From positions 9,664 to 73,663 of the forward strand of contig JBAZNZ010000003.1 in the NCBI GenBank assembly GCA_041648975.1: 64,000 bases of DNA, written 5' to 3'. The notes beneath the pieces are model-generated. The model saw only the letters and a list, made by a program, of their open reading frames with translations. It did no database searches and was not told the DNA's origin. The stretch comes from Candidatus Omnitrophota bacterium (GTDB lineage: Bacteria > Omnitrophota > Gorgyraeia > 2-01-FULL-45-10). The translations under genes were made by a program, and so were the position numbers. Positions 5,503 to 64,000 of the stretch are shown here, in pieces. The first letter of the stretch is position 1. Every line of letters starts with the position of its first letter.

Positions 5503-5509
5503 GACATGT

Positions 5510-10888: not shown

Positions 10889-10893
10889 CCGAT

Positions 10894-12765: not shown

Positions 12766-12774
12766 AGGCAGGAC

Positions 12775-39306: not shown

Positions 39307-39314
39307 GGGGCAAA

Positions 39315-39938: not shown

Positions 39939-39949
39939 GGAAATATGTC

Positions 39950-43664: not shown

Positions 43665-43665
43665 T

Positions 43666-46363: not shown

Positions 46364-47130
46364 GCTATCTAGACGGACAGTTCGGGCTCAGGGATAAAGT
46401 GGCGCTGATTACCGGTGCCTCGGGGCAGCTCGGCCGGCGGCTGTGCGAAAGTTTCGTCAAGGCGGGGGCCAAGGTGGCAGGGCTGGACAAGGTCATATCG
46501 AAAGCGAAGACAGACGGCGTCGAATATTACAGAGCCGATATAACGAAGAAGAAGGATGTTGAGGGTGCTCTGGGGCGCGTAGCCGGGAAATACGGGACCA
46601 TAGATATAATGATCAACAACGCGGGTGTCAGCGTTTTCGAGCCTTTCGAGAAGAGGCCCGAGAAGAGCATAGACCATGTCATGGACGTGAACCTGAAAGG
46701 GACGTTCTTCTGCATCCAGTCGTACGTCAATATATTCGACAGGTGTAAGCTGAAGAAGGGCTCGATCGTCAACGTTGCCTCCTTTTACGGCGTCATATCT
46801 CCGGACTTCAGGATATATACGGACTGCAAGAGAAAGAATTCCGAGATCTACGGGGCTACCAAGGCCGGTGTCATACAGATGACTAGATATTTCGCCGTCC
46901 ACCTGGCTTCCAGGAATATCCGGGTGAATGCGGTATCTCCGGGCGGGATATACAATCCCGATAATCCGCAGGGGAAAGATTTCATAAAGAACTATTCGGC
47001 GAGGTGCCCCATGGGAAGGATGGCCAGGGACGGGGAGATCGCGGGGGCCGTCATGTACCTTTCCGGTGACGCGGCAAGCTATACGACCGGGCACAATATA
47101 GTAGTAGACGGCGGCATGAGCTGCTGGTGA
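46360..47130 (+). CDS. Short-chain dehydrogenase/reductase (classical SDR)
   Basis: ITGASGQLG, NNAGV, YGATKAG (YxxxK). Confidence 0.8.
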   Translation: MSYLDGQFGLRDKVALITGASGQLGRRLCESFVKAGAKVAGLDKVISKAKTDGVEYYRADITKKKDVEGALGRVAGKYGTIDIMINNAGVSVFEPFEKRPEKSIDHVMDVNLKGTFFCIQSYVNIFDRCKLKKGSIVNVASFYGVISPDFRIYTDCKRKNSEIYGATKAGVIQMTRYFAVHLASRNIRVNAVSPGGIYNPDNPQGKDFIKNYSARCPMGRMARDGEIAGAVMYLSGDAASYTTGHNIVVDGGMSCW

Positions 47131-47147
47131 GAGAAGGCGGGTGCGAT

Positions 47148-47999
47148 ATGGGTTACTCAAGAAAAGACCTTAAAGATTACGGGCTCGGCACAAATAACGG
47201 CATCTACGTTATAGCGGAGATAGGTATAAACCACATGGGTGACATCGACTCCGCCAGGAACCTCATAGGGTCAGCGCGCAGGGCCGGCGCGGACGCGGTG
47301 AAATTCCAGACTTATGTGACAGAAAGAAGGACGCATAAAGGCTCTCCGATATTCGATATACTGAAAAGGTGCGAGCTTCCGTTCGAGGCCTTCAGGGAGC
47401 TTAAGGATTATTCGAGTTCGCTCGACATAGAATTTTTCTCGACGCCTTTTGACGCCGAGAGCGTGGATTTTCTGGAGAGCATCGGCTGCCGCATATACAA
47501 GGTATCGTCGTTCGATGTGACGAACCATGCGCTTCTTTCCAGGGTCGCCGCCACGGGCAAGACTGTCATGATGTCCGTAGGCATGGCCAATATGGGCGAG
47601 ATACAGGACGCTTACAATATCCTGAAAGGCGGGACCTCAAAGGTCGCGCTGTTACATTGTATCTCCGCGTATCCGTCCAGGCCGGAAGACGCGAACCTGG
47701 CCGCGATATATGTCCTGAAGGAAAAATTCGATTGTCTGATAGGCCAGTCCGACCATACGAACGATATCGTGATACCGTTGTATGCGGCCTCGGCCGGAGC
47801 GCAGGTCGTCGAGAAGCATTATAAGATCGATGAACGGATGGACTGCGTGGATGCGGCCGTGTCTATTACTGAGAAACAGATGGCCGGGATGGTGGAAGAG
47901 ATGAGAAAGCTCGATAAGGCGCTTGGAAGGGGCGAGCTGGGGGTGAGGCCCGCCGAAAAAGGCTGCGAGATATTCCGGAGAAAAGCGGGGGCGCGATGA
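47148..47999 (+). CDS. NeuB-family synthase catalytic (TIM-barrel) domain lacking the C-terminal SAF domain
   Basis: YVIAEIGINHMGD, DAVKFQTY, GQSDHTND. Stops about 60 aa short of SAF-containing NeuB. The start was moved from GTG 47127 to ATG 47148. Confidence 0.75.
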   Translation: MGYSRKDLKDYGLGTNNGIYVIAEIGINHMGDIDSARNLIGSARRAGADAVKFQTYVTERRTHKGSPIFDILKRCELPFEAFRELKDYSSSLDIEFFSTPFDAESVDFLESIGCRIYKVSSFDVTNHALLSRVAATGKTVMMSVGMANMGEIQDAYNILKGGTSKVALLHCISAYPSRPEDANLAAIYVLKEKFDCLIGQSDHTNDIVIPLYAASAGAQVVEKHYKIDERMDCVDAAVSITEKQMAGMVEEMRKLDKALGRGELGVRPAEKGCEIFRRKAGAR

Positions 48000-49069
48000 A
48001 TAAACTTTACGTTTTTCAGGATGGGAGGAAGAATGATTATTCTAAGGAACTGGAGTGCGCTTATAAGACGTACGGCAAGGGCTCTCCGAAGTCGAAATTT
48101 CGCGGTATTTCCGTGGACAAGCTCATCGACCACTCCACAGAGGTGATCATATCGAACGGGCTGCCCAAGAACTGGTATTTCATACTGAAGGGCCTCAACA
48201 TAGTGACGATCACGCTGGACAGGCTGGATAAGCATTTAAATCTGGCCGACATAGTCATAGATTTCAAGAGCCAGGACAGCAACAGGTATTTTACGGGCCC
48301 CGATTATTCCATACGCAACAATAAGGACCTGGAATTCGACAGCATAGCGAACCTGATCAAGAAGCTAGAGTGGGACTCGGGGTTCTTCGGTTTCCCCGTG
48401 GCCCTGCTCAGCTCGCGCTATCTTACGGAAAACATAATGCACCGAATAGAGAAGTTCATAAAGCGCGAGAATATAAGACTGGTCGAGTATCTCTGCAACT
48501 GCCACGACAGCCGGAGCGTCAAGATTGCCGAAAAGAACGGTTTCCATTTCGCCGACATTCGGCTCTCATTCGAAAAGGTCCTCAGGGAAAAGCATGGTCC
48601 GCAAATGCCGAAAGCGATACGGTTCGGAAAGGCTGATAAGAAGGATGTGAGGACGCTCAAGCATATCAGCGAGGACCTGTATAAGGACAGCAGGTACTTT
48701 TTCGATACCAATTTCAACAGGAGTAAGATAAACGAATTCTACCAGAACTGGATAGAGAAAGCCGTCCTGGGAAAATACGACGATGAATGTTTCTGCCTTT
48801 ATACGAATGGCGTTCCCGTGGCTTTCTGCTCGTTGAAATATAATATAGGATCGAGCGTCACCATAGGGTTGTTGGGGCTCTCCAACGAATATCAGGGCAA
48901 GGGGCTGGGCAAGGTGCTGCTATACAGCATCTTCGATATGCTGATCGACAGGGGGGTATCGAGAGTATCCGTCGTCACGCAGGGGCGTAATTATGCGGCC
49001 CAGCGCCTATACCAGAACGTCGGGTTCCTTACCAAGGCCACGGAGCTCTGGTACCACAAATGGATCTGA
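47996..49069 (+). CDS. GNAT-family N-acetyltransferase with an N-terminal about 180 aa domain of unknown function (PseH-like; N-domain possibly a PseG-like remnant)
   Basis: C-terminal GNAT core EYQGKGLGKVLL...RNYAAQRLYQNVGF. Confidence 0.7.
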   Translation: MNKLYVFQDGRKNDYSKELECAYKTYGKGSPKSKFRGISVDKLIDHSTEVIISNGLPKNWYFILKGLNIVTITLDRLDKHLNLADIVIDFKSQDSNRYFTGPDYSIRNNKDLEFDSIANLIKKLEWDSGFFGFPVALLSSRYLTENIMHRIEKFIKRENIRLVEYLCNCHDSRSVKIAEKNGFHFADIRLSFEKVLREKHGPQMPKAIRFGKADKKDVRTLKHISEDLYKDSRYFFDTNFNRSKINEFYQNWIEKAVLGKYDDECFCLYTNGVPVAFCSLKYNIGSSVTIGLLGLSNEYQGKGLGKVLLYSIFDMLIDRGVSRVSVVTQGRNYAAQRLYQNVGFLTKATELWYHKWI

Positions 49070-49968
49070 TGGAGAAGATATCGAGGTTTACCCTGGGCGC
49101 GGCGCAATTAGGGCTGCCTTACGGCATTTCCGGCAGGCCTCTCGTGGACTCGCCGGAGGACATACTGCGAGCCGCCCGCGAAGCGGGTATAGACACGATC
49201 GATACCGCTAAGGCATACGGAAACAGCGAAGAGATGATCGGCCGGTATCTGAAAAAGAACGCGGGATGGTCACCTGATATAATAACGAAGATAAAGATAG
49301 AGGGCGCAAGCGCCGCTGAGCTCGTTCGCGAGGTCGAGATGAAGTTGGACGACAGCCTGGAGAAGCTCGGCCGCAAAAGCATATACGGCCTCATGCTCCA
49401 TAATTACGGAGCGTTAGCCAGGCATAAGCGCTCTCTTGTCGACGCGATGGCGCAGTTGAAAGCGGCCCGTAAGGTAGCCAAGATAGGCATTTCGGTTTAC
49501 GGCGCCGATGAGCTGAAGATCTCGCTGGGATATGATGAGTTCGAGATATTTCAGGGGCCGGTAAACTTGTTCGACCGCAGGATAACGAGTTCGGGATCGT
49601 TGAAAGAGATAGTCCGGCGTAAAAAGTCTTTCTTCGCAAGGTCGGTGTTTCTGCAGGGGCTTTTTTTCATGGATGACGAAGCATTGGCCGGCAAGGTCCC
49701 GGAAGCCCGGACCTATATAGGTAAGCTGAGGGGATTGTCCGAAAAATCGGGCATGAGTGTGGCGGAACTGGCATTTTCATATACGGGAAGCATCGAGGGC
49801 ATAACGAGCCTTGTGTTGGGAGTCAAAAGCAGGAAACAGTTGAGCGATCTGATAGCGTTGTTAAAGACAAAACCCATCGCGCGGGACCTTGCGGGACAAA
49901 TAGAGAAGATATTCTCGGATGTGCCGCAGTATGTATACGATCCCAGGAGATGGCCTAACGCGGTATGA
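49060..49968 (+). CDS. Aldo/keto reductase
   Basis: IDTAKAYGNSEEMIG, LMLHNY. Confidence 0.8.
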   Translation: MDLMEKISRFTLGAAQLGLPYGISGRPLVDSPEDILRAAREAGIDTIDTAKAYGNSEEMIGRYLKKNAGWSPDIITKIKIEGASAAELVREVEMKLDDSLEKLGRKSIYGLMLHNYGALARHKRSLVDAMAQLKAARKVAKIGISVYGADELKISLGYDEFEIFQGPVNLFDRRITSSGSLKEIVRRKKSFFARSVFLQGLFFMDDEALAGKVPEARTYIGKLRGLSEKSGMSVAELAFSYTGSIEGITSLVLGVKSRKQLSDLIALLKTKPIARDLAGQIEKIFSDVPQYVYDPRRWPNAV

Positions 49969-50948
49969 CTATGAAGCGATATAAAACGGCAATAGTAGGG
50001 CTGGGGAATATAGCGTGGAAATTCGACGCGAGGGTAAGGTCGGCGGACCCGCTTACTCATGCGGGCGCGTATATGAAAAATCCCCGGACTGTCCTTGTCG
50101 GCGGCTGCTCGCCCGACAAGCAGGACCGCAGAGATTTCGAAAAAAGATACGGGGCGCCGGCATTCGCGGGCATAGAGGAGATGATCGGGAAGACGGAGCC
50201 CCATATAGTAAGCATATGCTCCCCGTCTGCTCTTCATTACGAGCACGTGGAGTACAGCCTCCGCAAGAGGGTGCCGATGATATGGCTGGAGAAGCCGCCT
50301 ACATTGACGGTCGAAGATATTGACGGCCTTATATATAAGGTAAGGGCAGCCGGTTCGTCCAGGTTACTGGTCAATTACCAGAGGCGCTATTGCCGGTCTT
50401 ACGCCCGGCTTAAAGAGCTTTTGGCGCGCCGAGCCCTGGGCAGGATCGTCTCCGTGAACTTGACGTATTCGAGAGGGCTGGCGACCAACGGTTCCCATAT
50501 CCTTGATATGGCGTTTTTCCTTACGGGAGACAAAGTAGATGCCGTGATCGGGCCTGTCTCTCCGGCTTCCGGGTCTGCCAATCCGTCGTTTATGATGAAA
50601 CTGGCCGGCGGGATCCCGTGTTCCGTATCCGGCATGGACCTGCCGTATCATTGCATCGACGTATCGGTCACCTGCGAACGGGGGCGCGCTTCCATAATAC
50701 ACGGCGGCATGAAGACCGTCTGGGAGATGAAGGAAGAACATGAGCTTTTCCCCGGGTTCTACAGGCTGCGTGACGCGGCGAAGAACCTTATAGGGCCAGG
50801 CGGTTTCAAGGGAAGCATGACTGCTGCGCTTGGTGATATTATTAACGCTCATGAAAAGAGAAGGGAGCCTGTGAGCAGCCTTCGCACCGCCAGACGCTCG
50901 CAGCTTGTGATGGAAGAGGTCAATAAAAGGATAAAGGCGGCGGGATGA
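49965..50948 (+). CDS. Gfo/Idh/MocA-family NAD(P)-dependent oxidoreductase
   Basis: TAIVGLGNIAWKF Rossmann, EKPP motif (WLEKPPTL). Confidence 0.8.
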   Translation: MTMKRYKTAIVGLGNIAWKFDARVRSADPLTHAGAYMKNPRTVLVGGCSPDKQDRRDFEKRYGAPAFAGIEEMIGKTEPHIVSICSPSALHYEHVEYSLRKRVPMIWLEKPPTLTVEDIDGLIYKVRAAGSSRLLVNYQRRYCRSYARLKELLARRALGRIVSVNLTYSRGLATNGSHILDMAFFLTGDKVDAVIGPVSPASGSANPSFMMKLAGGIPCSVSGMDLPYHCIDVSVTCERGRASIIHGGMKTVWEMKEEHELFPGFYRLRDAAKNLIGPGGFKGSMTAALGDIINAHEKRREPVSSLRTARRSQLVMEEVNKRIKAAG

Positions 50949-52060
50949 AGATACTTGCGGTTTCGGGAGATGTAGGCGGGGCCAGGGCCGTAATGCCGGT
51001 CCTGAAGAAGCTCTTTGACGAGAAGACGCCGTTCGTCATATCGGATAACGGTTTTCTCGGTAAAGAAGCGCCTGCCGAATGGCCGCGCGCGGTCCTGCCG
51101 GATTGGAGCGACAGGGATTCCGTGAAGGGGCTTATTGAAAAAGAGGGCGTCACACTTGTGATCTTCACTACGAGCGTCAAGGACGCTGTGCCTCTCGGCG
51201 TTGCCCGGGCCGCGCGGAACGCAGGTTTGCCTGTGATATGCATATTGGATAACTGGATGACCTACCGCAAACGCATGGAGGTCGACGGCCTGGAGACATT
51301 CCTTCCGGACGTATATGCGATGATGGACGAGCTTGCCTTTGAAGAGGCCGTAGCCGACGGCCTGCCGCCTTCGATACTGAAGGTCACAGGCCAGCCCGCA
51401 CTGGCGTCCATCGCGGAGTCCTACAGGTCGATGCGCAGAGAGGACTATGCGGACAAACTGCGTTCCTGCGGGATAATGAAGGATAAACAGCTTATAGTCT
51501 TTATCTCGGAACCCGCGGAGAAGGACCAGGGGGCGGGACCGTCATCGACGAATTTCAGGGGTTACACGGAGAAGACCGTGTTGCGGCAGTTGTGCGCCTG
51601 TTTGCAGCCGTATTCCGGCCGGATCCAGATAGGTATAGCGCCCCATCCGCGCGAAGACCAGGAGGAATTGAGCAGGTCCTGGGAGGCGTACCGGGGCGGC
51701 CTGACGGGCGGTATATTGAAAAATACAAGCGGCAGGGAATCGGTATTCCTTGCGGACGGCGTAGCGGGCATGGCATCCATACTTCTTTATGAGGCGTACC
51801 TGGTGGGCAAGCCTTCCATAAGTCTTCAGCCCGGCCTGAGACTGCCGCAGTTAGCCTTTATGAAGAAGAAGAAAGGGTGCCGCTTTCTCGACGATCCGGG
51901 ATCGTGGAAAGAGTATGTAGACGGCTGGATAGCCGATGTCAGGAAAGCGCCGGGGGCGCACAAGATCGACCCGGAGCTTGAATTTCACCTGAAGGCCTCG
52001 GACAGGATCATACGCACCATAAAGGATTCCATGAAGCTTATTAAAAAGAAGGGGGCTTGA
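50945..52060 (+). CDS. Hypothetical two-domain Rossmann-like (GT-B-like) protein, unknown specificity
   Basis: ILAVSGDVGGARAV N-terminus. Second half LIVFISEP...IAPHPRED. No clear family signature. Confidence 0.3.
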   Translation: MKILAVSGDVGGARAVMPVLKKLFDEKTPFVISDNGFLGKEAPAEWPRAVLPDWSDRDSVKGLIEKEGVTLVIFTTSVKDAVPLGVARAARNAGLPVICILDNWMTYRKRMEVDGLETFLPDVYAMMDELAFEEAVADGLPPSILKVTGQPALASIAESYRSMRREDYADKLRSCGIMKDKQLIVFISEPAEKDQGAGPSSTNFRGYTEKTVLRQLCACLQPYSGRIQIGIAPHPREDQEELSRSWEAYRGGLTGGILKNTSGRESVFLADGVAGMASILLYEAYLVGKPSISLQPGLRLPQLAFMKKKKGCRFLDDPGSWKEYVDGWIADVRKAPGAHKIDPELEFHLKASDRIIRTIKDSMKLIKKKGA

Positions 52061-52062
52061 GC

Positions 52063-52782
52063 ATGAATGTGGCGATAATACCCGCCAGAGGCGGGAGCAA
52101 GCGGGTACCAAAAAAGAATATCAAACTTTTCATAGGCAAACCGATCATAACGTATTCCCTGAAAGAGACCGTGGACAGCGGACTCTTCGATAGGGTCATA
52201 GTCTCTACCGATTCGGAAGAGATAGCGGCAATAGCCAGGAGCGCCGGGGCGGAGGTCCCGTTCATGCGCCCCGCCGAACTGTCGGACGATCATACACACA
52301 TAGCGGACGTCGTAGAACATGCGATCAAGTGGCTTAAGGCGGACGGCTGCGACGTTGAATATGTATGCTGTATATTCTGCACAGCCCCGTTCATACAGAA
52401 AAAATATCTAAAGGAAGGCCTTGAGAAGATAAGGAAGACCAAGACCGATTCGGTATTCACGGTCACCAGCTTTCCGTTCCCCATATTGCGGGGGATGAGG
52501 ATAACCGACAAAGGGACCCTCGAGATGTTCTGGCCGCAGTATGAATTCACCAGGTCCAACGACCTCGAGGAGGCATATCATGACGCGGGGCAGTTCTACT
52601 GGCTGGAGGCCGACCGCTTCCTCAAGAATAAGAGATTTTTTACGAAAGACGCCCTTCCGATAATCCTGCCCAGGTATCTTGTGCAGGACATAGATACCCC
52701 GGAGGACTGGGAGACGGCCGAGATGCTGTATGAATCCATCCAGAGAAAAGATAATAAAAAAGAGGAGGGAGTAAGAAGATGA
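52063..52782 (+). CDS. Acylneuraminate cytidylyltransferase family (PseF/LegF-like CMP-nonulosonate synthetase), second copy
   Basis: VAIIPARGGSKRVPKKNI. The start was moved from TTG 52057 to ATG 52063, which has an AAGGGGG Shine-Dalgarno. Confidence 0.8.
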   Translation: MNVAIIPARGGSKRVPKKNIKLFIGKPIITYSLKETVDSGLFDRVIVSTDSEEIAAIARSAGAEVPFMRPAELSDDHTHIADVVEHAIKWLKADGCDVEYVCCIFCTAPFIQKKYLKEGLEKIRKTKTDSVFTVTSFPFPILRGMRITDKGTLEMFWPQYEFTRSNDLEEAYHDAGQFYWLEADRFLKNKRFFTKDALPIILPRYLVQDIDTPEDWETAEMLYESIQRKDNKKEEGVRR

Positions 52783-54110
52783 AGTTGGCTATTAACGGCG
52801 GAAGCCCGGTAAGAAAGAAACTGTTCCCAGGATACAACTATATAGGCGCGGAGGAGAAAGCCGAGGTCATGAGGGTGCTCGATTCCGGAGTGCTGTCCCA
52901 GTTCCTGGGGTGCTGGCACGCCGACTTTTACGGCGGGCCCGAAGTGAGGACACTCGAAAAGGAATGGGCCGAGTATTTCGGCGCCAAGCACGCTATCTCG
53001 GTAAATTCCTGCACCTCCGGGCTGATATGCGCCGTAGGGGCCACAGGCGTGGAACCGGGGGAGGAGATAATAGTGACTCCGTACAGCATGTGCATATCCG
53101 CCGCGGCGCCCCTGTTCTACAACGCCGTCCCCGTTTTTGCCGATGTTGAGGAGGATTACTATTGCCTCGACGCCGATTCTATCGAAAAACGCATCACGCC
53201 GAGGACGCGCGCCATACTGGTCGTGGACCTTTTCGGCATGCCGTATGACGCCCAGAGGATAAACGCCATCGCGAAGAAGCACGGCCTGATAGTCATAGAG
53301 GATACCGCCCAGGCGCCCGGCGCCCTGAATAACGGCAAGTATACGGGGACGCTCGGACACATGGGAGTCCATTCGCTGAATTATCATAAGCATATCCATT
53401 CGGGCGAAGGCGGCGTCATCCTGACCAATGACGACAAGCTGGCGGAGAAGGTCCAGCTGATACGCAACCACGGGGAGGCCGTCGTCGAGAAAAAAGGAAC
53501 GAAAGATATAGTGAACATCATCGGGTATAATTTCAGGATGACGGAGATGGAGGCGGCCGTAGCGAGGTGTCAGCTCAGGAAGCTGAAGAAACTCTTATCC
53601 GATCGCCAGGACAACTGCGCCTATCTGAACGAAAAGCTCGGGCAGGTCCCCGGTATCGTCCCGACGAAGCTGAGGAAGGGATGCACGCATTCCTACTATG
53701 TCCATCCCCTGAAATATAAAGAAGAGGTCACCGGCGTGCCCCGGAACGTCTTCATAGACGCGGTCAGGGCGGAGCTCGCGCCGTTGGCGCTGCGCGAAGG
53801 CGAAGGCGTAAAGATAACGTCCGGTTACTGCAGGCCGCTGTATTTACAGCCGATATTCCAGAAGAAGATCGCTTACGGGTCCAAGGGTTGCCCGTTCACA
53901 AAACCGTGGTATGAAGGCAGCGTAAGTTATGACAAGGGAATATGCCCCACCGTCGAGCGCCTCTTCGAGAAAGAGCTGTTTATCCACGAGATGATAAGCC
54001 CCCCGATGACGAGAGAGGACCTTAACGATGTGGTCAAGGCATTCGAGAAGGTATACGAGAACAGAGAAGAGCTAATGCAGAAAGCAGCAGGAAAGGAGAC
54101 AGTTAGATGA
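52779..54110 (+). CDS. DegT-family sugar aminotransferase (PseC-like)
   Basis: SCTSGLICAV, HSLNYHKHIHSGEGG (PLP lysine). AGAGGAGGGA Shine-Dalgarno. Confidence 0.85.
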   Translation: MKLAINGGSPVRKKLFPGYNYIGAEEKAEVMRVLDSGVLSQFLGCWHADFYGGPEVRTLEKEWAEYFGAKHAISVNSCTSGLICAVGATGVEPGEEIIVTPYSMCISAAAPLFYNAVPVFADVEEDYYCLDADSIEKRITPRTRAILVVDLFGMPYDAQRINAIAKKHGLIVIEDTAQAPGALNNGKYTGTLGHMGVHSLNYHKHIHSGEGGVILTNDDKLAEKVQLIRNHGEAVVEKKGTKDIVNIIGYNFRMTEMEAAVARCQLRKLKKLLSDRQDNCAYLNEKLGQVPGIVPTKLRKGCTHSYYVHPLKYKEEVTGVPRNVFIDAVRAELAPLALREGEGVKITSGYCRPLYLQPIFQKKIAYGSKGCPFTKPWYEGSVSYDKGICPTVERLFEKELFIHEMISPPMTREDLNDVVKAFEKVYENREELMQKAAGKETVR

Positions 54111-55492
54111 AGTTGCTATTCGTGATGTATGACAATGAAGGGCCGAAAAACAGTATGCCGGTCGGGCCGTGCTACGTGGCGGCCTATGCCAAGGAGAACG
54201 GATACGGCGATATAGCCTACTACAGCCAGGATGTTTATCATTATCCGGAAGAGCATCTTACGAAGTATCTTGATGACAACCGTTTCGATGTGGTGGGCAT
54301 CGGTTTTTGCGCCGGCTATTTCCAGCTGAAAAAGATCAAGATGATATGCGACGCCATCCACAAGTCGAAACACAGACCCTTTATAGTGTTGGGCGGTCAT
54401 GGGCCGAGCCCCGTGCCGGAGTTTTACATTAAATACATGGGCGCGGATGCCACTGTTTCGGGCGACGGAGAGCTGCCGTTCCTGAATCTTGTGAAGGCGC
54501 TTGAGAACAAGACTCCTCTTAGCAAGGTAAAAGGGATATCCTACCGGGACGGCGATAAGGTGGTCGTGAACGAACGGGAAGCGGCCATAAAAGACCTGGA
54601 TAGTCTGCCGTTCCCTCTTTACGAACTCCTGCCTATGGAATATTATCTTGCCGCCAAACTGGCGGGCCAGAGCGCTACAGACCGCATGATATATCTTACG
54701 CCAAGCAGGGGATGTACGTATAATTGCAATTTCTGCCAGCGGCTTGAGCCCGGGATCCGCCTCAGGTCTCCCGGCAACATAGTAGAGGAGATAAAAAAAT
54801 ACAAGAAGGACTACAACGCGACGTTTATACATTTTGTAGATGAGCTGTTCATGTTAAGCAAGAAACGTATCTATGACCTTACGGAGGCATTTCTGAAGGC
54901 GGACCTTAATATAAAATATTTCTGCACGGGGCGCCTCAACATCGCCGATGAGGAGATACTCGGCATGATGAAACGCTCGGGTTGCGCATATATAGACTAC
55001 GGCATAGAACAGTTCGATAACGCTGCTCTCGCTGCCATGGATAAGCAGCAGACCGAGGATGATATAATCCGCGGCATAACGGCGACACAGAAGGCCGGCA
55101 TCAACATCGTATTTAATATAATATTCGGCAATATCGGGGATACGAAAAAAAGCCTTCGTAAGTCGATAGAACTGCTGAAGAAATACAATGATTACGGCCA
55201 GGTCAGGGCGATCAGGCCGGTAACGCCGTATCCGGGCTCGCCTCTTTATTATTATGCCATAGATAAGGGGCTTCTTAAGGGGCCGGAGGATTTTTACAGG
55301 AAGCATACGAATCTTGAGCTTCCGACGGTGAACTTCACCAGCATACCGGACAAAGAGTTCATAGACCTGATGTTCGAGGCTAATAAGGAAATACTTCACG
55401 ACCACTACGACCATGTAAGAGATGAGACCATTGAAACTTTCCGGAAGGTCTATTATGAGAAGGACGCGAGTTTCAGGGGGACGAGGCATTAG
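54107..55492 (+). CDS. B12-binding radical SAM protein, copy 7
   Basis: MKLLFVMYDN, SRGCTYNCNFCQRL. Confidence 0.85.
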   Translation: MKLLFVMYDNEGPKNSMPVGPCYVAAYAKENGYGDIAYYSQDVYHYPEEHLTKYLDDNRFDVVGIGFCAGYFQLKKIKMICDAIHKSKHRPFIVLGGHGPSPVPEFYIKYMGADATVSGDGELPFLNLVKALENKTPLSKVKGISYRDGDKVVVNEREAAIKDLDSLPFPLYELLPMEYYLAAKLAGQSATDRMIYLTPSRGCTYNCNFCQRLEPGIRLRSPGNIVEEIKKYKKDYNATFIHFVDELFMLSKKRIYDLTEAFLKADLNIKYFCTGRLNIADEEILGMMKRSGCAYIDYGIEQFDNAALAAMDKQQTEDDIIRGITATQKAGINIVFNIIFGNIGDTKKSLRKSIELLKKYNDYGQVRAIRPVTPYPGSPLYYYAIDKGLLKGPEDFYRKHTNLELPTVNFTSIPDKEFIDLMFEANKEILHDHYDHVRDETIETFRKVYYEKDASFRGTRH

Positions 55493-55495
55493 AAT

Positions 55496-56545
55496 ATGAA
55501 GAATAAGGCCGCGGAAAAGGAATGGAAGCAGCTACGGTATACCAGGGACCCGGACGAGATGATCGCCGGTGTAGTGGGTAAAGAGTATATGGAATACCGC
55601 AAGCGCTGGGAGCGCGCCGGCCGGTTGCAGGTGACCGGCAAATATCCGACGCATCTCGATTTCGAATTCCGGTACGGGTGTAACTTGAAATGCCCCTATT
55701 GCATACTCCAGATAGGGTCCTCGGAATTGGGCGAAAACCACCCTTATCACATCAGGAATAAGTCGCTCAGCATCACGTTCGAGAAGTTCGAGGAGATACT
55801 CAAAGAGGGTATATCGCATGGGCTTTCGTCCATTACGATAGGCGGCAATAATGAACCCCTGCTGACGCGAGATGTCGCCAGATACATAAAACGCGCCAGG
55901 GAACTGGGCATAGTAGATGTAATTATGCTTACCAACGCTACATTGCTTACGGAGAAGATCTCCGCAGAGCTGCTGGATTCCGGAATAACCAAGATATATT
56001 TCTCCCTGGACGCCATACGGCAAGAGACATACAGGATAGTGCGCAAGGGCGGCGATTTCGGTAAGGTCATGAAGAATATAGAATATTTCCTGAAACTGAA
56101 GAAAGAGAAAGGGCAGGTCCTGCCGATAACCAGGGTCTCTTTCGTAAAGAATAAGCTGAACGAGGCCGAAGCGGAAGAGTTTGCCGAGTACTGGAAAACA
56201 AAGGTCGATTTCCTTTGCTTCCAGGCGTTCGTGACGCCGGCCTACGGGTATTCGGGCTATGAGACGCTCCGGAAAAAGTTCCAGATGGAGAACAAGGAGC
56301 TGAAAGAACCGGGCGTCTGCAGCCAGCCTTACCAGCGCCTGACTATTTACAGCGACGGGTCCGTGCATCCCTGCTGCCGGTGGTACGGATCGACCATAAT
56401 CCTGGGAAATATTAATTCAGAGAGTATCTATGATATATGGAATTCCGCAAAGATGAAAAAATTCAGGCTTGCGGTAAATGACAGCGTTCCGGATAATGTG
56501 CCCAAGGAATGCCGGATATGCAGGAAGACTATCTTTGGTGAATAG
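55496..56545 (+). CDS. Radical SAM protein with C-terminal SPASM-like domain, second copy
   Basis: YGCNLKCPYCILQ. C-terminal CSQPY...HPCCRWYG...CRICRK. Confidence 0.75.
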   Translation: MKNKAAEKEWKQLRYTRDPDEMIAGVVGKEYMEYRKRWERAGRLQVTGKYPTHLDFEFRYGCNLKCPYCILQIGSSELGENHPYHIRNKSLSITFEKFEEILKEGISHGLSSITIGGNNEPLLTRDVARYIKRARELGIVDVIMLTNATLLTEKISAELLDSGITKIYFSLDAIRQETYRIVRKGGDFGKVMKNIEYFLKLKKEKGQVLPITRVSFVKNKLNEAEAEEFAEYWKTKVDFLCFQAFVTPAYGYSGYETLRKKFQMENKELKEPGVCSQPYQRLTIYSDGSVHPCCRWYGSTIILGNINSESIYDIWNSAKMKKFRLAVNDSVPDNVPKECRICRKTIFGE

Positions 56546-58045: not shown

Positions 58046-58816
58046 ATGATAGACCTGAAAGCCAGGTTAAAAGCCAATAAGCTTACTATAGGATCCTGGA
58101 TCACGCTTGCGTCCCCGGCCATACCGGAGATCATGGCCCGGTGCGGGTTCGACTGGCTCACAGTCGATATGGAACATTCGGCTATAACCATCGAAATTGC
58201 CCAGGACCTTATACGGATCATCGGGCTGTCAGGCGTCGTGCCTCTAGTGCGCGTCGGCAAGAACGACCCTAATCTAATAAAGAGGGTCATGGATGCCGGT
58301 GCGCACGGCGTGATCGTGCCTATGGTGAATTCGCCGGAAGATGCCGAGAGGGCGGTCAGCGCCGTCAAATATCCGCCTGTCGGGAAGAGGGGCGTCGGCC
58401 TTGCGCGGGCGCAGGGGTACGGCCTTGAATTCGGGAAGTATAAAAACTGGGTCAATAAAAAAAGCGTAGTTGTCGTCCAGGTAGAGCATATAGACGCGGT
58501 CGAAAGCCTAGAAGGCATACTCGCGACCCCGGGGGTGGATGCTTTTATTGTGGGACCGTATGACCTGTCGGCTTCGCTGGGAAGACCTGGGGAATTCGAA
58601 CATCCCGACGTCAAGGCGGCGCTTAAAGAGGTGATTTCTGTATCGAAACGGATGAATAAATGCGCCGGGTTTCACGTCATCCCGCCGGACAGCCGGCTGC
58701 TTGCTAAAAAATCCGAAGAAGGCTATAGGTTCTTAGGGTTCAGCCTCGATACGCTCTTTTTGGGCCGGTCATGCATGGATGAAACAACCGCCGCGCGCAG
58801 GAAGATGAGGAGATAA
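58046..58816 (+). CDS. HpcH/HpaI-family class II (pyruvate-specific) aldolase
   Basis: GSWITLASP, DWLTVDMEHS, GVIVPMVNS, VGKRGVG. AGAAAGGA Shine-Dalgarno. Confidence 0.8.
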   Translation: MIDLKARLKANKLTIGSWITLASPAIPEIMARCGFDWLTVDMEHSAITIEIAQDLIRIIGLSGVVPLVRVGKNDPNLIKRVMDAGAHGVIVPMVNSPEDAERAVSAVKYPPVGKRGVGLARAQGYGLEFGKYKNWVNKKSVVVVQVEHIDAVESLEGILATPGVDAFIVGPYDLSASLGRPGEFEHPDVKAALKEVISVSKRMNKCAGFHVIPPDSRLLAKKSEEGYRFLGFSLDTLFLGRSCMDETTAARRKMRR

Positions 58817-58819
58817 GAG

Positions 58820-59611
58820 ATGAATATCGCAGCTATAATACCCGCCAGGATGGCGTCGACAAGATACCCCGGAAAGCCCCTTGCCAGGATACTCGGCATG
58901 GAGATGATAGGCCATGTCTATTTCCGCAGCCGCATGTCCAAGCTCCTTAACGGTATATATATAGCCACATGCGATAGCGAGGTGAGTGATTACGCGAAAT
59001 CGATAGGCGCGCCGTACATCATGACAAAGGATACTCATGAGAGGGCGTCCGATCGCGCGGCGGAGGCTATGCTTAAGATCGAGGCGGATACCGGAAAGAA
59101 GCTGGACATAGTCGTGATGATACAGGGCGACGAGCCGATGATTGCGCCGGAAATGATAGACGAGGCCGTGAGGCCGCTTGTCGAAGACAGCTCGATACTC
59201 GTGTCGAACTCCATGGCCGATATCATGACCAGGCAGGAGCAGGAGGACCCGAACGAGGTGAAGGTCGTTGTCGATAATGACGGCTTTGCGTTATACTTTT
59301 CGCGCGAGCCGATACCGTCATGGAAGAAAGGCGCGAAGGCCGTGCCGATGCGCAAACAGGTATGTATAATACCTTTCAGGAGGGATTTTCTTTTGAAGTT
59401 CAACGGGCTTAAGCAGACGCCGCTCGAGATCGTCGAGTCGGTCGACATGCTGAGGGTCCTCGAAAACGGATATAAGGTAAAGATGGTCCCGACGAAATAT
59501 GTGACGTACAGCGTCGATACGCCGGAGGATCTAAGGACCGTCGAAGAGGCCATGAAGGGCGATAAGCTCCTGGCCGGGTATTTCCGGGCCGCAAAGGCAG
59601 GGAGGGGGTAG
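58820..59611 (+). CDS. KdsB-family cytidylyltransferase (CMP-3-deoxy-ulosonate synthetase)
   Basis: AAIIPARMASTRYPGKPL (KdsB IIPARxxSTRxPGKPL signature), VVMIQGDEP. Confidence 0.8.
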   Translation: MNIAAIIPARMASTRYPGKPLARILGMEMIGHVYFRSRMSKLLNGIYIATCDSEVSDYAKSIGAPYIMTKDTHERASDRAAEAMLKIEADTGKKLDIVVMIQGDEPMIAPEMIDEAVRPLVEDSSILVSNSMADIMTRQEQEDPNEVKVVVDNDGFALYFSREPIPSWKKGAKAVPMRKQVCIIPFRRDFLLKFNGLKQTPLEIVESVDMLRVLENGYKVKMVPTKYVTYSVDTPEDLRTVEEAMKGDKLLAGYFRAAKAGRG

Positions 59612-59615
59612 CCGT

Positions 59616-60056
59616 ATGGAAAAGGTCTCCGCGCTGAAAATAGAGGACTTTAAGGAAGGCAAGAGCTATTCGTTCGAAAAGACCGTGACGGCCGCGGACA
59701 TCGACGTCTTTGCCGCTATAACGGGCGATATCAGTCCTCTGCATATGAGCGATGAGTTTGCCCGGGCTAGAGGGTTCAAAGGCAGGGTCGCGCACGGCGT
59801 GCTCCTCGCGGGATTTGTGTCGAAGATTATAGGCGTGGACTTTCCCGGCGAGAACTGCCTCCTACAGACCATGAGCCTGAAATTTTCCACGCCATGTTAC
59901 GCCGGAGACACATTGCGTATCACCGCGTCCGTCAGCCAGGTTTCAACCGCCGCAGGCGCAGTGGTCCTTGATATAGTGATAGAAAATGCGGCAGACCGCG
60001 TAACTGTGGCAAAAGGGAAAGCGCAGGTAGGTTTTACGAAGACGACAGGAAAATAA
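59616..60056 (+). CDS. MaoC-like (R)-specific enoyl-CoA/ACP hydratase, hot-dog fold
   Basis: ITGDISPLHMSDEFA, RVAHGVL. Confidence 0.8.
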   Translation: MEKVSALKIEDFKEGKSYSFEKTVTAADIDVFAAITGDISPLHMSDEFARARGFKGRVAHGVLLAGFVSKIIGVDFPGENCLLQTMSLKFSTPCYAGDTLRITASVSQVSTAAGAVVLDIVIENAADRVTVAKGKAQVGFTKTTGK

Positions 60057-61693
60057 TGAAGGATATAGAGTTCATTTTTATAGCGCAGTCGGAGACGATC
60101 GATTACGGAGGGTATTCAAAGCTGCCCGCCGACAGGATCGAACTTTACAGGGATCTCGTCTATCCGCGCATGGTGTATTTTAAGGGAGCCTTCCGTTCGC
60201 ATCTCGACCTGATAAATTATTTTACGGAAGGAAAATTCTTTAACGAGGCAGGATACGCTGAGCGCCGTAAGCTTCTTAACATGTGGAACCTGCCCGGCAT
60301 GAACAGCCTCCATCTTGCGAACTACCTCGCGCAATACGGCATTGCGGCTAAGGTTATAAATAATTTCGACGCGGAATGGGATATATTCCGCGACGCGTAC
60401 GGATCCGCGAAACGCCCTCCGATCGTCGGCATTTCGACTACGTTCCATCTTTCTTATATGGAGGCTAAGCGTATCGCAGGAGAGATAAGGAAGGAATATC
60501 CGGACGCTGTCATAGCGCTGGGCGGCGCATTCGTGAACGAGCAGTCCATAAACGGGGAACTCAGGGACATGGAAAAGCCTATGCGCAAATACGGCATAAA
60601 TTACATACTCCATGCGTTCAATTCCGAGGCCGATCTGAGGGACCTTGTCCTGGCCTCAAGAAAAGGCGCGCTGCCGGGCAGCGTTAACAACCTCGCCTAT
60701 CTCGGCGGCGGCGATCTCAAGTCCTGCGCATTCGGGACGACGGGGACGAAATGGAACGACCCTGTCCTGGAGGATGATCCCGAGTTATGGGATAAGCTGG
60801 ATATGAAGTTCGTGAACCATACCGTCCAGACGAGGACTTCGTACGGCTGCCCGTTCTCCTGCGCGTTCTGCTCATATCCGAAGACGGCGAAAAAATTCTG
60901 CCAGATGGACATCGATGCTGTCGAAAAACAGGTAAATGGGCTTCTGAAGATTCCGGGCGTCGATAAGATAATATTCGTCGACGATACATTTAACGCGTCT
61001 CCTGCCCGTTTTAAGGACATATGCCGCAGTCTCGGCAAATATAATTTTGAATGGTTCGCCTTCCTGCGGGCCAACCTTATAGATGAGGAAACGGCAAGGC
61101 TGATGGTCAGGTCCGGATGCAGGGGCGTCTATCTCGGTATAGAATCGGCCGATGACGCTGTGCTGAAGAATATGAACAAGAAGGCCACGCACTCTCAATG
61201 TCTCGAGGGCATAAGGTTTCTGAAGAAATACGGCGTAACTACCGTGGCCGCGTTTATAATAGGTTTTCCGGGCGAGACGGAAGAGACCCTTAAGGAAGAT
61301 GTAGAGTTCATAGAGTCGAGCGGGGTCGATTTTTACACCCTGAAGGAGTTTTATTACATGAAGCATACGGCCGTATACGAGGATCGCGGCCGGTTCGGCC
61401 TGTCGGGCATTGGGAACAAGTGGCGGCACGATACGATGGATTACAAAAAGGCGCAAGCTGCGAAGATAGATATGTTCAGGTCAATCAAAAACAGCGTATA
61501 TGTCGATGCGGATACGAGCCTGTGGTATATAGCTTACCTTTATGACCAGGGATACGATATAAGCCGGACAGCGGCGGCACAGCGCCGTATAAACGGCATC
61601 GCGGCCCGGCAGATAGACGGTATGACGGATGATAACGACAGGCTCTTTAAAGAGCTAGGCGAAATATTATCGAAAGAGGCGGTGCGCAAATGA
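60056..61693 (+). CDS. B12-binding radical SAM protein, copy 8
   Basis: TSYGCPFSCAFCSYP. TAATG overlap with the upstream gene. Confidence 0.85.
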   Translation: MKDIEFIFIAQSETIDYGGYSKLPADRIELYRDLVYPRMVYFKGAFRSHLDLINYFTEGKFFNEAGYAERRKLLNMWNLPGMNSLHLANYLAQYGIAAKVINNFDAEWDIFRDAYGSAKRPPIVGISTTFHLSYMEAKRIAGEIRKEYPDAVIALGGAFVNEQSINGELRDMEKPMRKYGINYILHAFNSEADLRDLVLASRKGALPGSVNNLAYLGGGDLKSCAFGTTGTKWNDPVLEDDPELWDKLDMKFVNHTVQTRTSYGCPFSCAFCSYPKTAKKFCQMDIDAVEKQVNGLLKIPGVDKIIFVDDTFNASPARFKDICRSLGKYNFEWFAFLRANLIDEETARLMVRSGCRGVYLGIESADDAVLKNMNKKATHSQCLEGIRFLKKYGVTTVAAFIIGFPGETEETLKEDVEFIESSGVDFYTLKEFYYMKHTAVYEDRGRFGLSGIGNKWRHDTMDYKKAQAAKIDMFRSIKNSVYVDADTSLWYIAYLYDQGYDISRTAAAQRRINGIAARQIDGMTDDNDRLFKELGEILSKEAVRK

Positions 61694-63573
61694 ACGGTCA
61701 GGATAAAAAAGAAGCCTTGAGGAAGGTCAAAGAGGACATCAAACGCTCCGAATATAAGAGCGCATTTTCGCGCCTCGATCTCATAACCAGCCACGACGAC
61801 GATTTTGTCCTGCAATCGAGGTATGCCGCCCTTTTCAGATCGATCAGGACGGAAGGCCTCGATCTTAAAAAGATCCGTGTAGCGGTGCTTGCGACCAGCA
61901 CCGTCAGCCATTTCAACGATATATTAAGGTACTGGCTGGCGAAAGAAGGATTCGACGCCGACATATACGAATCGGAGTATGATACTGTCAGGCAAACGAT
62001 AATGGACAAGAACAGCCCCCTCTACGACTTCGGACCGGACATAGCCGTGATATTTACGAATTACAGGGATGTCGCGTTCGATGTGCCGCCGGGCAGCTCC
62101 CGCGAGGAAATTAAAAGCGCGGTTTCGTCGGCGGTCCGCGATGTAGCGTCCCTCTGGGACGCGCTTAACAGGAATTCGAAATGCCATATAATACAGAATA
62201 ACGCGGACCTGCCGTACCACCGCACTTTCGGAAACTTCGAAGGCGCGGCACCATGGACGAAGATCAATGTCCTGAGGCTGTTCAACCTTGAGCTCGCCAG
62301 CGCGGCCGTGCCCGGCGTGACCATATTCGATCTCGATTTCGTATCGTCGGCGTACGGTAAACGCAAATGGCATGACGCCGAGTATTGGTACCATTCCAAA
62401 CACGCTTTCAGCCTGGATGCGACAGGGCTGGTCGCACACGACCTGTCTAAGGTGATAGGCTCGATAAAAGGGCGGGCAAAAAAATGCCTCGTCCTCGACC
62501 TCGACAATACCATCTGGGGCGGAGTAATAGGCGATGACGGTATCGAGGGCATCGCGCTCGGCAGCGGTCCCGACGGCGAAGCATTCGCGGATTTCCAGCG
62601 GTATCTCGCGCTCCTGAAGAGACGCGGGGTCATACTTGCCGTATGCAGCAAGAACGACGAGGAGACCGCCAAAGAGCCGTTCCTCAAACACCCGGACATG
62701 CACCTTAAGCTGGAGGACATGGTCGTATTTAAAGCGAACTGGGATGATAAGCCGTCCAATATAAGGCAGATAGCGTCAGAGCTGAACATAGGGCTCGACG
62801 CAATAGTCTTCGTCGACGACAATCCGGCCGAGCGGGAGCTCGTGAGAAGCACTCTTCCGATGGTGAGCGTCCCGGAACTGCCGCCGGACCCGGCCGGTTA
62901 CGTCCACGCGTTGACAAGCCACTCATATTTCGAGACGGTCTCATTCTCCGACGAGGATAGGGCTCGGACCGAATATTATAAAAGTAATGTCACGCGCCTG
63001 GGGTTTCAAAAGCAGTTTACCGATCTCGCCGATTATCTGAAGAGCCTTGGCATGGAGATGGCGGTATGGACATTCGACGATTTCAACCTCCCCCGTATAT
63101 CGCAGCTTGTGAATAAGTCGAACCAGTTCCATCTTACTACGACCAGATACACCGAACAGGAACTGAGATCGATGCGGGACGACCCCAAGAGGATCTGCCG
63201 GTCATTCAGGCTTAGGGACCGTTTCGGCGACAACGGCCTGATATCGGCGGTAATACTTGAGAAGAAGACGCCCGGCGAGGCGGTGATAGATACCTGGGTC
63301 ATGAGCTGCCGCGTCCTGTCGAGAAGCTGCGAGGAATTTATCTGCCGGGAGATGATAACCCTGGCAGAAGAGGCAGGTGTGAAGAGGATAACGGGTAAGT
63401 ATATACCGACGAAGAAGAACAGGCTCGTCAGCGGATTATACGAAAGACTCGGCTTCCGTACCGCAGGTCAGGAAGCCGAGGCGTTTCTATGGTCGCTCGA
63501 TATCGGCCGGGGGACAACGCTTCCGGAGACATTCATAAAGAGGGCCGTTGAAACAGATAGTGTAAGGATGTAA
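61690..63573 (+). CDS. FkbH-like HAD-superfamily (subfamily IIIC) phosphatase/acyltransferase with C-terminal GNAT-like domain
   Basis: CLVLDLDNTIWGG HAD motif I, AVCSKND, VFVDDNP. Then a C-terminal acyltransferase-like domain, as in FkbH/OzmB glyceryl-ACP synthases. Confidence 0.75.
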   Translation: MNGQDKKEALRKVKEDIKRSEYKSAFSRLDLITSHDDDFVLQSRYAALFRSIRTEGLDLKKIRVAVLATSTVSHFNDILRYWLAKEGFDADIYESEYDTVRQTIMDKNSPLYDFGPDIAVIFTNYRDVAFDVPPGSSREEIKSAVSSAVRDVASLWDALNRNSKCHIIQNNADLPYHRTFGNFEGAAPWTKINVLRLFNLELASAAVPGVTIFDLDFVSSAYGKRKWHDAEYWYHSKHAFSLDATGLVAHDLSKVIGSIKGRAKKCLVLDLDNTIWGGVIGDDGIEGIALGSGPDGEAFADFQRYLALLKRRGVILAVCSKNDEETAKEPFLKHPDMHLKLEDMVVFKANWDDKPSNIRQIASELNIGLDAIVFVDDNPAERELVRSTLPMVSVPELPPDPAGYVHALTSHSYFETVSFSDEDRARTEYYKSNVTRLGFQKQFTDLADYLKSLGMEMAVWTFDDFNLPRISQLVNKSNQFHLTTTRYTEQELRSMRDDPKRICRSFRLRDRFGDNGLISAVILEKKTPGEAVIDTWVMSCRVLSRSCEEFICREMITLAEEAGVKRITGKYIPTKKNRLVSGLYERLGFRTAGQEAEAFLWSLDIGRGTTLPETFIKRAVETDSVRM

Positions 63574-63581
63574 GGAGGGCT

Positions 63582-63833
63582 ATGACCGGCAAGAGGGATT
63601 CTATAAAGGAGCGCCTGAACGGGATTTTCAGGGAAGTCTTTGACGACGATACGATCGAGATATCGGATACTATGACAGCGAAGGATATCGCCGAGTGGGA
63701 TTCGCTGAATCATATAGTACTCGTAGTCGCCGTGGAGAAAGAGTTCGGCCTGAAGCTTAACGCCGCAGAGGTCGGGAAGCTGGAGAATGTCGGATCGATG
63801 CTGACGCTCCTCGAAGGCCGCGCTACAAAATAA
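63582..63833 (+). CDS. Acyl carrier protein (phosphopantetheine attachment DSL motif)
   Basis: 83 aa, IAEWDSLNHIVLVVAVE. Perfect TAAGGAGGG Shine-Dalgarno, 6-nt spacer. Confidence 0.8.
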   Translation: MTGKRDSIKERLNGIFREVFDDDTIEISDTMTAKDIAEWDSLNHIVLVVAVEKEFGLKLNAAEVGKLENVGSMLTLLEGRATK

Positions 63834-63846
63834 TAACGAGGCACGG

Positions 63847-64000
63847 ATGGATTTCATATCTATTAAATTTGCCGTCTTTGTAATGCTTGCGCTTACCGCA
63901 TTTTCGGTCTGTCCGAAAGCGCGCCGCATGAGTGTTATCATGCCGTTTATCAATCTGGCGTTCCTAGCCACGTTTGTGACCGATCTGCGGCAGCTTGCGC
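63847..64000 (+). CDS. MBOAT-family membrane-bound O-acyltransferase (DltB/AlgI-like) N-terminus, 3'-truncated by window edge
   Basis: MDFISIKFAVFVMLALTAF... matches the characteristic MxFxSxxFxxFxxxxL MBOAT start. Immediately follows the ACP, as in dltC-dltB. Confidence 0.5.
   Translation, partial: MDFISIKFAVFVMLALTAFSVCPKARRMSVIMPFINLAFLATFVTDLRQLA

Follow-up and report, generated by a model that had tools for sequence, protein, structure and literature searches.

How does a bacterium supply the acyl group for a surface glycan when a DltB-like acyltransferase stands next to a carrier protein, but the adenylating enzyme DltA is missing? This question arises from a cassette in the last 4.4 kb of a 64,000-nt stretch of Candidatus Omnitrophota bacterium DNA (JBAZNZ010000003.1, positions 9,664-73,663; hereafter the window, meaning this whole stretch). 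The cassette combines an FkbH-like loader, an acyl carrier protein (ACP) and a membrane-bound O-acyltransferase (MBOAT), which are preceded by two candidate tailoring genes. The answer favored here, with moderate confidence and from bioinformatic evidence, is that it encodes an ACP-dependent MBOAT-SGNH pathway which O-acylates the exported glycan made by the surrounding gene cluster. Such a pathway would work on the same principle as the Dlt system, except that FkbH instead of DltA would do the loading.

The cassette and its completion

Five open reading frames, all on the plus strand, make up the cassette within the window, and they are closely packed: neighboring frames either overlap by 1-4 nt or stand 8-13 nt apart. 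They encode a MaoC-type (R)-3-hydroxyacyl-thioester dehydratase (59616-60056, 146 aa, PF01575), a B12-binding radical SAM enzyme (60056-61693, 545 aa, PF04055 with a weak PF02310 match), the FkbH-like loader (61690-63573, 627 aa, TIGR01686 and PF21211), a dedicated ACP (63582-63833, 83 aa, PF00550) and the N-terminal 51 codons of a DltB-like MBOAT (63847-64000), which runs off the window end. A first-pass annotation, made from the sequence alone, had described this five-gene arrangement, and every gene is found where it was placed; the truncated MBOAT frame is also there, although its ATG lies at 63847 rather than at 63848.

The missing 3' part can be recovered from public data. The FkbH-like protein is found on two public contigs, one of which belongs to a Candidatus Omnitrophota metagenome-assembled genome. 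Locus L001 is 100% identical to the window's 3' end across all 10,622 overlapping bases and extends about 4 kb past it. There the MBOAT is complete (L001:10469-11920, 483 aa, PF03062), and directly after it comes a putative membrane-anchored SGNH-fold protein (L001:11922-12980, 352 aa), a candidate for the DltD-like partner for which the first-pass annotation had proposed extending the contig. The parts are present and intact, and, as described below, their linkage is conserved. A scan of L001 for promoters and terminators returned only intragenic sites, in a number close to the shuffled expectation.

The loader and its carrier protein

The FkbH-like protein scores 311.6 bits against TIGR01686, about double the cut-off of 146.65, over profile positions 2-321 of 323, and it also matches PF21211 (FkbH_N). 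FkbH_N is one of its three domains, the others being a HAD-IIIC phosphatase domain and a GNAT-fold domain. HAD motifs I-IV (DxDxT, S/T, K and DD) are all present, as D270/D272, S320, K354 and D376-D377, and C540, within W-V-M-S-C-R-V (S539-C540-R541), is the sole cysteine that is invariant across glycan-linked and natural-product FkbH homologues. The natural-product comparators were a ZmaN-like FkbH from a zwittermicin-type nonribosomal peptide synthetase/polyketide synthase cluster and a tetronate-type FkbH encoded between a FabH-like gene and an ACP. The FkbH family loads glyceryl from 1,3-bisphosphoglycerate (PMC9057759, PMC7489565), and by family membership the window's protein should do the same, with C540 as the predicted glyceryl-carrying residue. 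Neither the 64-kb window nor L001 encodes an AMP-binding, DltA-like adenylating loader, and FkbH takes the loader position in the cassette.

The ACP matches PF00550 at 23 bits (cut-off 20.8), and its motif EW-D-S41-L places the predicted phosphopantetheine attachment site at Ser41. Across 73 distinct FkbH-linked ACPs, W39-D40-S41 is conserved at 99-100%, and the serine is invariant. Among solved structures it comes nearest to 2lml (8e-14), which is itself only a generic putative ACP. The family assignments of the first-pass annotation, which depended on the catalytic cysteine and HAD motifs of the loader, its TIGR01686 match, a conserved serine in the helix-II DSL context of the ACP and the identity of the downstream frame, therefore stand for all three proteins, including the MBOAT considered next.

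A hybrid MBOAT and its SGNH partner

In the window, the 51-residue MBOAT fragment has no NCBIfam match, and its identity comes from the extended contig. The completed protein matches PF03062 at 66.8 bits against a cut-off of 27; its sole NCBIfam match is DltB (TIGR04091, 167 bits), and DltB is also its best solved relative (3e-21). His328, in MGIWHG, aligns through IWHG with the catalytic-histidine motif FWHG of DltB (6bug). At 483 aa the protein is longer than DltB, which has about 400-425 aa, and it ends in PEFIYKAF. Within this ending, F478-I-Y480-K-A-F483 is an exact match to the acyl-shuttle motif FxYxxF, preceded by two hydrophobic segments and fused to the MBOAT rather than carried on a microprotein.

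This motif connects the protein with a described mechanism. In work on Dlt and PatAB, its tyrosine accepts the acyl group that the MBOAT delivers and gives it to the SGNH protein; Dlt has the motif on the microprotein DltX, and every other MBOAT-SGNH system carries it on two extra helices of the MBOAT itself (PMC12148441). Only two donors are recognized for such systems, D-alanyl-DltC in Dlt and acetyl-CoA in all others (PMC12148441). The Omnitrophota MBOAT is a hybrid in these terms, since its shuttle motif is fused as in the PatA type, yet the gene is translationally coupled to that of a dedicated ACP.

The protein encoded directly after the MBOAT has an N-terminal membrane helix and an invariant Ser77/Asp331/His334 set. 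Its SGNH fold is read from the model of a homologue, whose longest structural alignment is with DltD, and on this modeled fold it is a candidate DltD-like partner. In other loci this gene has multiplied. L003 (11546-14929) and L093 (7388-10771) each have three tandem copies behind a single MBOAT, in L091 entire MBOAT-SGNH pairs occur in duplicate, and SGNH-like genes flank the MBOAT on both sides in L092. This multiplication may point to one ACP that feeds several acceptor specificities.

Linkage across phyla

Scanning one genome per species with the FkbH alignment alone yields 80 loci from many phyla, with open reading frame calling that is crude in the high-GC loci. Of the 80, 71 have an ACP and 52 have an MBOAT no more than 8 kb away. 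In 25 loci the ACP gene stands directly upstream of the MBOAT gene, and the stop codon of the one often overlaps the start codon of the other. An SGNH-like partner is detected in 36 of the 80 loci and adjoins the MBOAT in 30, counts made with an iterated SGNH profile that may have drifted. This gene grouping exceeds chance. The reverse approach, seeding from the MBOAT in metagenomes, gives the same picture: among the closest loci, the two with an upstream flank both carry MaoC-FkbH-ACP directly upstream, and one of them has the radical SAM gene as well. The locus of the nearest homologue (L089) has the same order, MaoC-radical SAM-FkbH-ACP-MBOAT-SGNH, and lies next to NeuB. Here and in related loci, the neighbors of the cassette are glycosyltransferases, flippases and sugar-nucleotide enzymes.

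The survey MBOATs fall into two architectures. Thirty-six of 54 end in xYxxF and are mostly 461-534 aa long, while the other 18, of DltB size (326-468 aa), have no terminal xYxxF. At least 14 of these 18 adjoin a small open reading frame that encodes one hydrophobic helix and a C-terminal xYxxF, with endings such as AIVYKAF, DFVYTGF and KFIYFAF, and that lies downstream in all but one. Such frames occur in L004, L015, L018, L022, L024, L026, L031, L034, L040, L041, L048, L057, L062, L067, L070 and L074, roughly 100-500 nt from the MBOAT gene, with L062 (just upstream) and L067 (about 1.3 kb downstream) departing from this spacing. Their predicted sequences suggest DltX-like microproteins that lie outside the Dlt pathway and have so far escaped annotation. 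Together with the ACP and the SGNH protein, the short-MBOAT loci reproduce the DltX/B/C/D layout, with FkbH replacing DltA.

Several observations weigh against the proposed pathway. Homology to DltB is limited, since the MBOAT's 167 bits fall below the DltB equivalog cut-off of 375, which makes it a relative and not an orthologue, and a best structural match to DltB does not discriminate because no other bacterial MBOAT is among the solved structures. The fused FxYxxF on two extra helices is a hallmark of MBOATs that use acetyl-CoA, such as PatA, and not of DltB (PMC12148441). The ACP is not specifically DltC-like, with DltC (6bug_A) matching only at E = 0.42, and the loader is 26-29% identical to the ZmaN-like and tetronate-type comparators, a distance that leaves some doubt about which substrate is loaded. 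Linkage is the basis for the roles suggested below for the MaoC and radical SAM enzymes. Moreover, in close relatives the module, as MaoC-radical SAM-FkbH-ACP or as FkbH-ACP, also occurs with partners other than an MBOAT. In L088 it is followed by a GNAT protein and a DegT aminotransferase (11166-12915); in L084 it is followed by a WcbI-family putative acetyltransferase and a short-chain reductase (SDR) (10105-12433); and L005, L006 and L090 have no MBOAT, with an unannotated 366-aa protein (11145-12245) in its place in L090. An FkbH-linked ACP can clearly serve other transferases.

These facts lend some weight to an arrangement of two separate functions side by side. FkbH and the ACP, with MaoC and the radical SAM enzyme, would then feed a cytoplasmic N- or O-acyltransferase that acts on a nucleotide sugar, for example toward an N-glyceroyl-type nonulosonic acid, and the MBOAT-SGNH pair would be an acetyl-CoA-dependent O-acetyltransferase of the PatA/PatB or AlgI/J/X type, as its fused motif could indicate. 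The loci L088 and L084 fit such a division, and so does the content of the window, with two NeuB synthases, four DegT aminotransferases, three CMP-transferases and GNAT/PglD-like acyltransferases. N-glyceroyl nonulosonic acids exist, for instance on pseudaminic acid, with a genetic basis described as unknown (PMC5378307), and the fkbH-domain gene cj1302 of C. jejuni lies in a flagellar glycosylation locus (PMC7099621). Nevertheless, this arrangement is rated as rather unlikely because ACP-MBOAT junctions recur across many phyla and often overlap. Loci found through the MBOAT lead back to FkbH-ACP, the window itself leaves only 13 nt between the ACP stop and the MBOAT start, and the loci that combine an ACP and an SGNH protein with a short MBOAT and a DltX-like microprotein mirror the sole MBOAT system known to use a carrier protein.

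The cassette is also present in cultured bacteria, including Chryseobacterium, Mucilaginibacter, Granulicella, Paramagnetospirillum and Sinorhizobium meliloti, and several cultured Bacteroidota and Acidobacteriota carry it. Among the carrier strains are Chryseobacterium luteum DSM 18605 (L033), Mucilaginibacter sp. OK098 (L049) and Paramagnetospirillum marisnigri SP-1 (L009). In S. meliloti, the plasmid locus L083 (4819-10704) reads VOC-MBOAT-409-aa protein-ACP-FkbH and adjoins the capsule export genes rkpR/S/T on pSymB; the Kdo-capsule genes KpsF and RkpR are neighbors too. The 409-aa protein carries the annotation TonB-dependent receptor, probably in error, since a membrane helix and GGS...DPGH motifs suggest an SGNH-like transferase. 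The gene for FkbH is intact in the strains that L083 represents, and in strain 1021 (NC_003078.1, 631295-632907) the FkbH match comes in two pieces, which may reflect a frameshift.

Tailoring genes and the nature of the acyl group

The MaoC protein matches PF01575 at E = 1.8e-19, and its closest solved structures are HTD2 (3ir3, 2e-18) and PhaJ (1iq6). The Asp/His dyad of GD-x-SPLH is kept in all 21 aligned cassette-linked MaoCs, and orthologues adjoin FkbH in L003-L012 (L007 excepted), L088-L090, L092 and L093. The radical SAM enzyme matches PF04055 at E = 3.5e-26, with its CxxxCxxC motif beginning at residue 265. Its top NCBIfam match is the PhpK methyltransferase family (TIGR04479), at 377 bits over nearly the full length and below the 600-bit cut-off, while its best solved relative is AprD4 (5e-14). 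A role as a diol dehydratase was considered on account of AprD4, and C-methylation is preferred on the basis of the family scores, 377 bits for PhpK against 60 for AprD4.

Linkage ties both enzymes to the loader. The first-pass annotation had counted this radical SAM gene as the eighth B12-dependent copy, and the window does hold eight paralogues, among which it is the most divergent. Its orthologues (E = 1e-169 to 1e-209) invariably adjoin FkbH, whereas E-values reach only 1e-14 to 1e-24 for the window's seven remaining copies. Wherever FkbH identity to this loader is 47% or more and flanking sequence is present, the orthologous radical SAM gene is directly adjacent, mostly in the order MaoC-radical SAM-FkbH-ACP; MaoC is absent from this pattern only in L007, which has an SDR and a VOC protein instead. 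From this conserved linkage, MaoC is proposed to be a tailoring enzyme acting on the ACP-bound three-carbon unit, and the radical SAM enzyme its C-methylase.

Since MaoC and the radical SAM enzyme accompany FkbH-ACP in the closest subfamily, a tailored glycerate derivative is the probable acyl group. Here the expectation of the first-pass annotation divides: a glyceroyl-derived group processed by the dehydratase and the radical SAM enzyme fits the conserved linkage, and plain glyceroylation is unlikely. The plain form would transfer an unmodified glyceryl unit, as in the O-glycerate ester of gellan, and leave MaoC and the radical SAM enzyme to act elsewhere in the cluster. It has precedent in the O-glycerate esters of bacterial polysaccharides (PMC9104527) and in many related FkbH-ACP-MBOAT(-SGNH) loci without tailoring genes, among them L018, L020, L031, L041, L048, L057, L063 and L071. 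The seven other B12-radical SAM enzymes of the window, which presumably act on sugars, could be counted in its favor as well, yet the cassette copy forms a distinct orthologue group far from them and keeps its place beside FkbH, and so plain transfer appears improbable in this genome.

Tailoring sets vary by subfamily, from MaoC with an SDR to a VOC protein or none, which suggests a modular family. MaoC and an SDR accompany FkbH-ACP in 11 related loci, eight of which also have an MBOAT. On L001, the stop codon of the SGNH gene is overlapped by a PGDH-like D-2-hydroxyacid dehydrogenase gene (L001:12977-13882, about 2.5 kb past the window end; TIGR01327 at 222.6 bits, below the cut-off), followed by a gene for an NAD-dependent epimerase/dehydratase-family protein. 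Neither is conserved in any of the related loci. A D-lactyl route through the PGDH-like dehydrogenase was considered and excluded from the cassette on that ground.

A natural-product fragment (polyketide, tetronate or nonribosomal) unconnected to the glycan is rejected as highly improbable: the characterized FkbH homologues all serve such pathways, providing methoxymalonyl-ACP, hydroxymalonyl-ACP or tetronates (PMC9057759, PMC7489565), and clusters of this type were recovered among plasmid matches (L086, L087), but the window and L001 contain no ketosynthase, polyketide synthase, FabH-like, nonribosomal peptide synthetase, FkbI/K-type dehydrogenase or FkbG-type O-methyltransferase gene, the cassette neighbors are glycan genes, and natural-product FkbH proteins are distant in sequence.

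Proposed pathway

Acylation of the exported glycan would begin with the FkbH-like enzyme, which by family membership would take a phosphorylated three-carbon acid, most likely 1,3-bisphosphoglycerate, and form a thioester on Cys540. The HAD domain would remove the phosphate, and glyceryl would pass to the phosphopantetheine arm on Ser41 of the ACP. Because glyceryl-ACP has a 3-hydroxyl group, dehydration followed by radical C-methylation is the most economical proposal for the two tailoring enzymes. MaoC would strip the 3-hydroxyl on the ACP to give 2-hydroxyacryloyl- or pyruvoyl-ACP, and the B12-radical SAM enzyme would probably add a methyl group, yielding a four-carbon 2-oxo or 2-hydroxy acyl group. 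This tailoring chemistry, suggested by conserved linkage, is the weakest part of the model.

Export would follow the route known from DltB/DltX and PatA. By this analogy, and with gene linkage pointing to the ACP as donor, His328 of the MBOAT would move the acyl group across the membrane onto the protein's own Tyr480 in FIYKAF. The SGNH protein, through Ser77/Asp331/His334, would then take it from the tyrosine and esterify a hydroxyl group of the glycan outside the cytoplasmic membrane. The first-pass annotation had proposed a Dlt-like pathway in which FkbH replaces DltA, and the ACP, the complete MBOAT, its putative SGNH partner and the lack of a DltA-like enzyme in the window support it.

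On a broader scale, FkbH-ACP-MBOAT-SGNH loci may represent a widespread, undescribed class of envelope acylation that places glycerate-derived esters on surface glycans after swappable tailoring on the ACP. The class would span Omnitrophota, Elusimicrobiota, Planctomycetota, Acidobacteriota, Bacteroidota, Bacillota, Pseudomonadota, Cyanobacteria and others, and its products would follow the tailoring genes: glyceroyl with none, a lactyl-type group with MaoC and an SDR, a further variant with VOC proteins, and a methylated four-carbon group with MaoC and the B12-radical SAM enzyme. Taken as one joint claim, this generalization is about evenly balanced between holding and failing.

Comparison with known systems

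The cassette resembles Dlt in several respects. A small carrier-protein gene stands beside the MBOAT gene and is followed by the gene of a membrane-anchored protein with a modeled SGNH fold, the catalytic histidine is conserved in an MBOAT whose nearest NCBIfam and solved matches are DltB, the FxYxxF motif is present, and some related loci carry it on a separate, putatively DltX-like microprotein. Unlike Dlt, the cassette uses an FkbH-type HAD/GNAT enzyme as the loader, which makes a phosphorylated three-carbon acid, rather than D-alanine, the expected acyl source. It also has its shuttle motif fused to the MBOAT and MaoC and B12-radical SAM enzymes within the operon, and it belongs to a Gram-negative-type Omnitrophota host in which the acceptor is presumably a nonulosonic-acid-rich glycan and not teichoic acid. 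The cassette would work in a Dlt-like manner without being a member of Dlt: it has no DltA, its MBOAT stays under the DltB cut-off, and its ACP shows no specific likeness to DltC.

With PatA- and AlgI-type systems, the cassette shares the C-terminal FxYxxF on extra helices fused to the MBOAT. PatA/PatB and AlgI/AlgJ/AlgX, in contrast, have no carrier protein and use acetyl-CoA as the donor (PMC12148441), whereas here an ACP and its loader are coupled to the MBOAT. FkbH, OzmB, ZmaN and the tetronate loaders have the same FkbH domain, HAD motifs and S-C-R cysteine and a dedicated ACP directly downstream (PMC9057759, PMC7489565). The Omnitrophota loader differs from them in its low identity and its polysaccharide biosynthesis setting, and its acyl-ACP appears bound for a membrane acyltransferase rather than for a ketosynthase, a FabH-like enzyme or an FkbK/I/G set.

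The loading module of the bryostatin synthase BryA offers a further parallel. It has the order DH-KR-FkbH-ACP and provides a D-lactyl starter, and this set is proposed to convert glyceryl-ACP to lactyl-ACP. Both cases pair FkbH-ACP with a hotdog dehydratase, and the loci with MaoC and a reductase have the same enzyme set as BryA. The Omnitrophota cassette differs in its free-standing enzymes, in a B12-radical SAM protein that replaces the reductase, and in its proposed end point, a glycan instead of a polyketide.

The combination of these genes had been described as not an established system. In the full-text literature searched, which leaves out most subscription journals, no paper links FkbH with an MBOAT for polymer acylation; the two are mentioned together only for aeruginosin clusters, where they act separately, and the reviews in the same literature name no gene for the O-glycerate of gellan.

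Acyl groups on surface polymers control charge, resistance to antimicrobial peptides, recognition by phages and the immune system, and the physical properties of industrial gums. The cassette suggests a third donor route for MBOAT-SGNH systems, in which a three-carbon unit derived from glycolysis is loaded on an ACP by FkbH, optionally tailored and then exported. If the broader class proposed above is real, the rule that Dlt alone among MBOAT-SGNH systems uses a carrier protein would fall, and there would be a genetic handle on glyceroyl and lactyl decorations of unknown origin. The cassette also offers candidate genes for glyceroyl-type substituents, such as the N-glyceroyl group of pseudaminic acid (PMC5378307). 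The hypothesis is experimentally tractable because the cassette occurs in culturable bacteria.

The surrounding glycan cluster

The window as a whole is one large glycan cluster. It encodes four GT2 glycosyltransferases, two free-standing GT4-type enzymes and one glycosyltransferase fused to a radical SAM domain, together with two Wzx-like flippases. The NeuB synthases lie at 37067-38164 and 47127-47999, and CMP-sugar cytidylyltransferases at 36486-37118 and 52057-52782, with a third at 58820-59611. A double nonulosonic-acid toolkit extends over 35314-54110 and comprises the two NeuB genes, a NeuC-like 2-epimerase, a PglD-like N-acetyltransferase and three of the DegT aminotransferases, the fourth lying at 9782-10888. 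The acceptor of the acyl group is likely to be an exported glycan rich in nonulosonic acids. Directly upstream of the cassette (58046-59611), an HpcH/HpaI-type pyruvate aldolase gene precedes the third cytidylyltransferase gene, which is KdsB-like; this pair may provide an aldolase route to a 3-deoxy-2-ulosonic acid.

The eight B12-radical SAM paralogues are found at 5462-6943, 13860-15398, 20486-23191, 24254-25681, 29191-30654, 31418-32830, 54107-55492 and 60056-61693, the last being the cassette gene. Two more radical SAM enzymes are encoded at 12775-13851 and 55496-56545, the latter with a SPASM domain. With so unusual a density, the sugars may undergo extensive C-methylation by radical enzymes, or some other radical chemistry. 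The product of 20486-23191 is a 901-aa fusion of an N-terminal B12-binding radical SAM domain and a C-terminal GT4-type glycosyltransferase, and an MbnB/TglH-like protein is encoded at 45596-46363.

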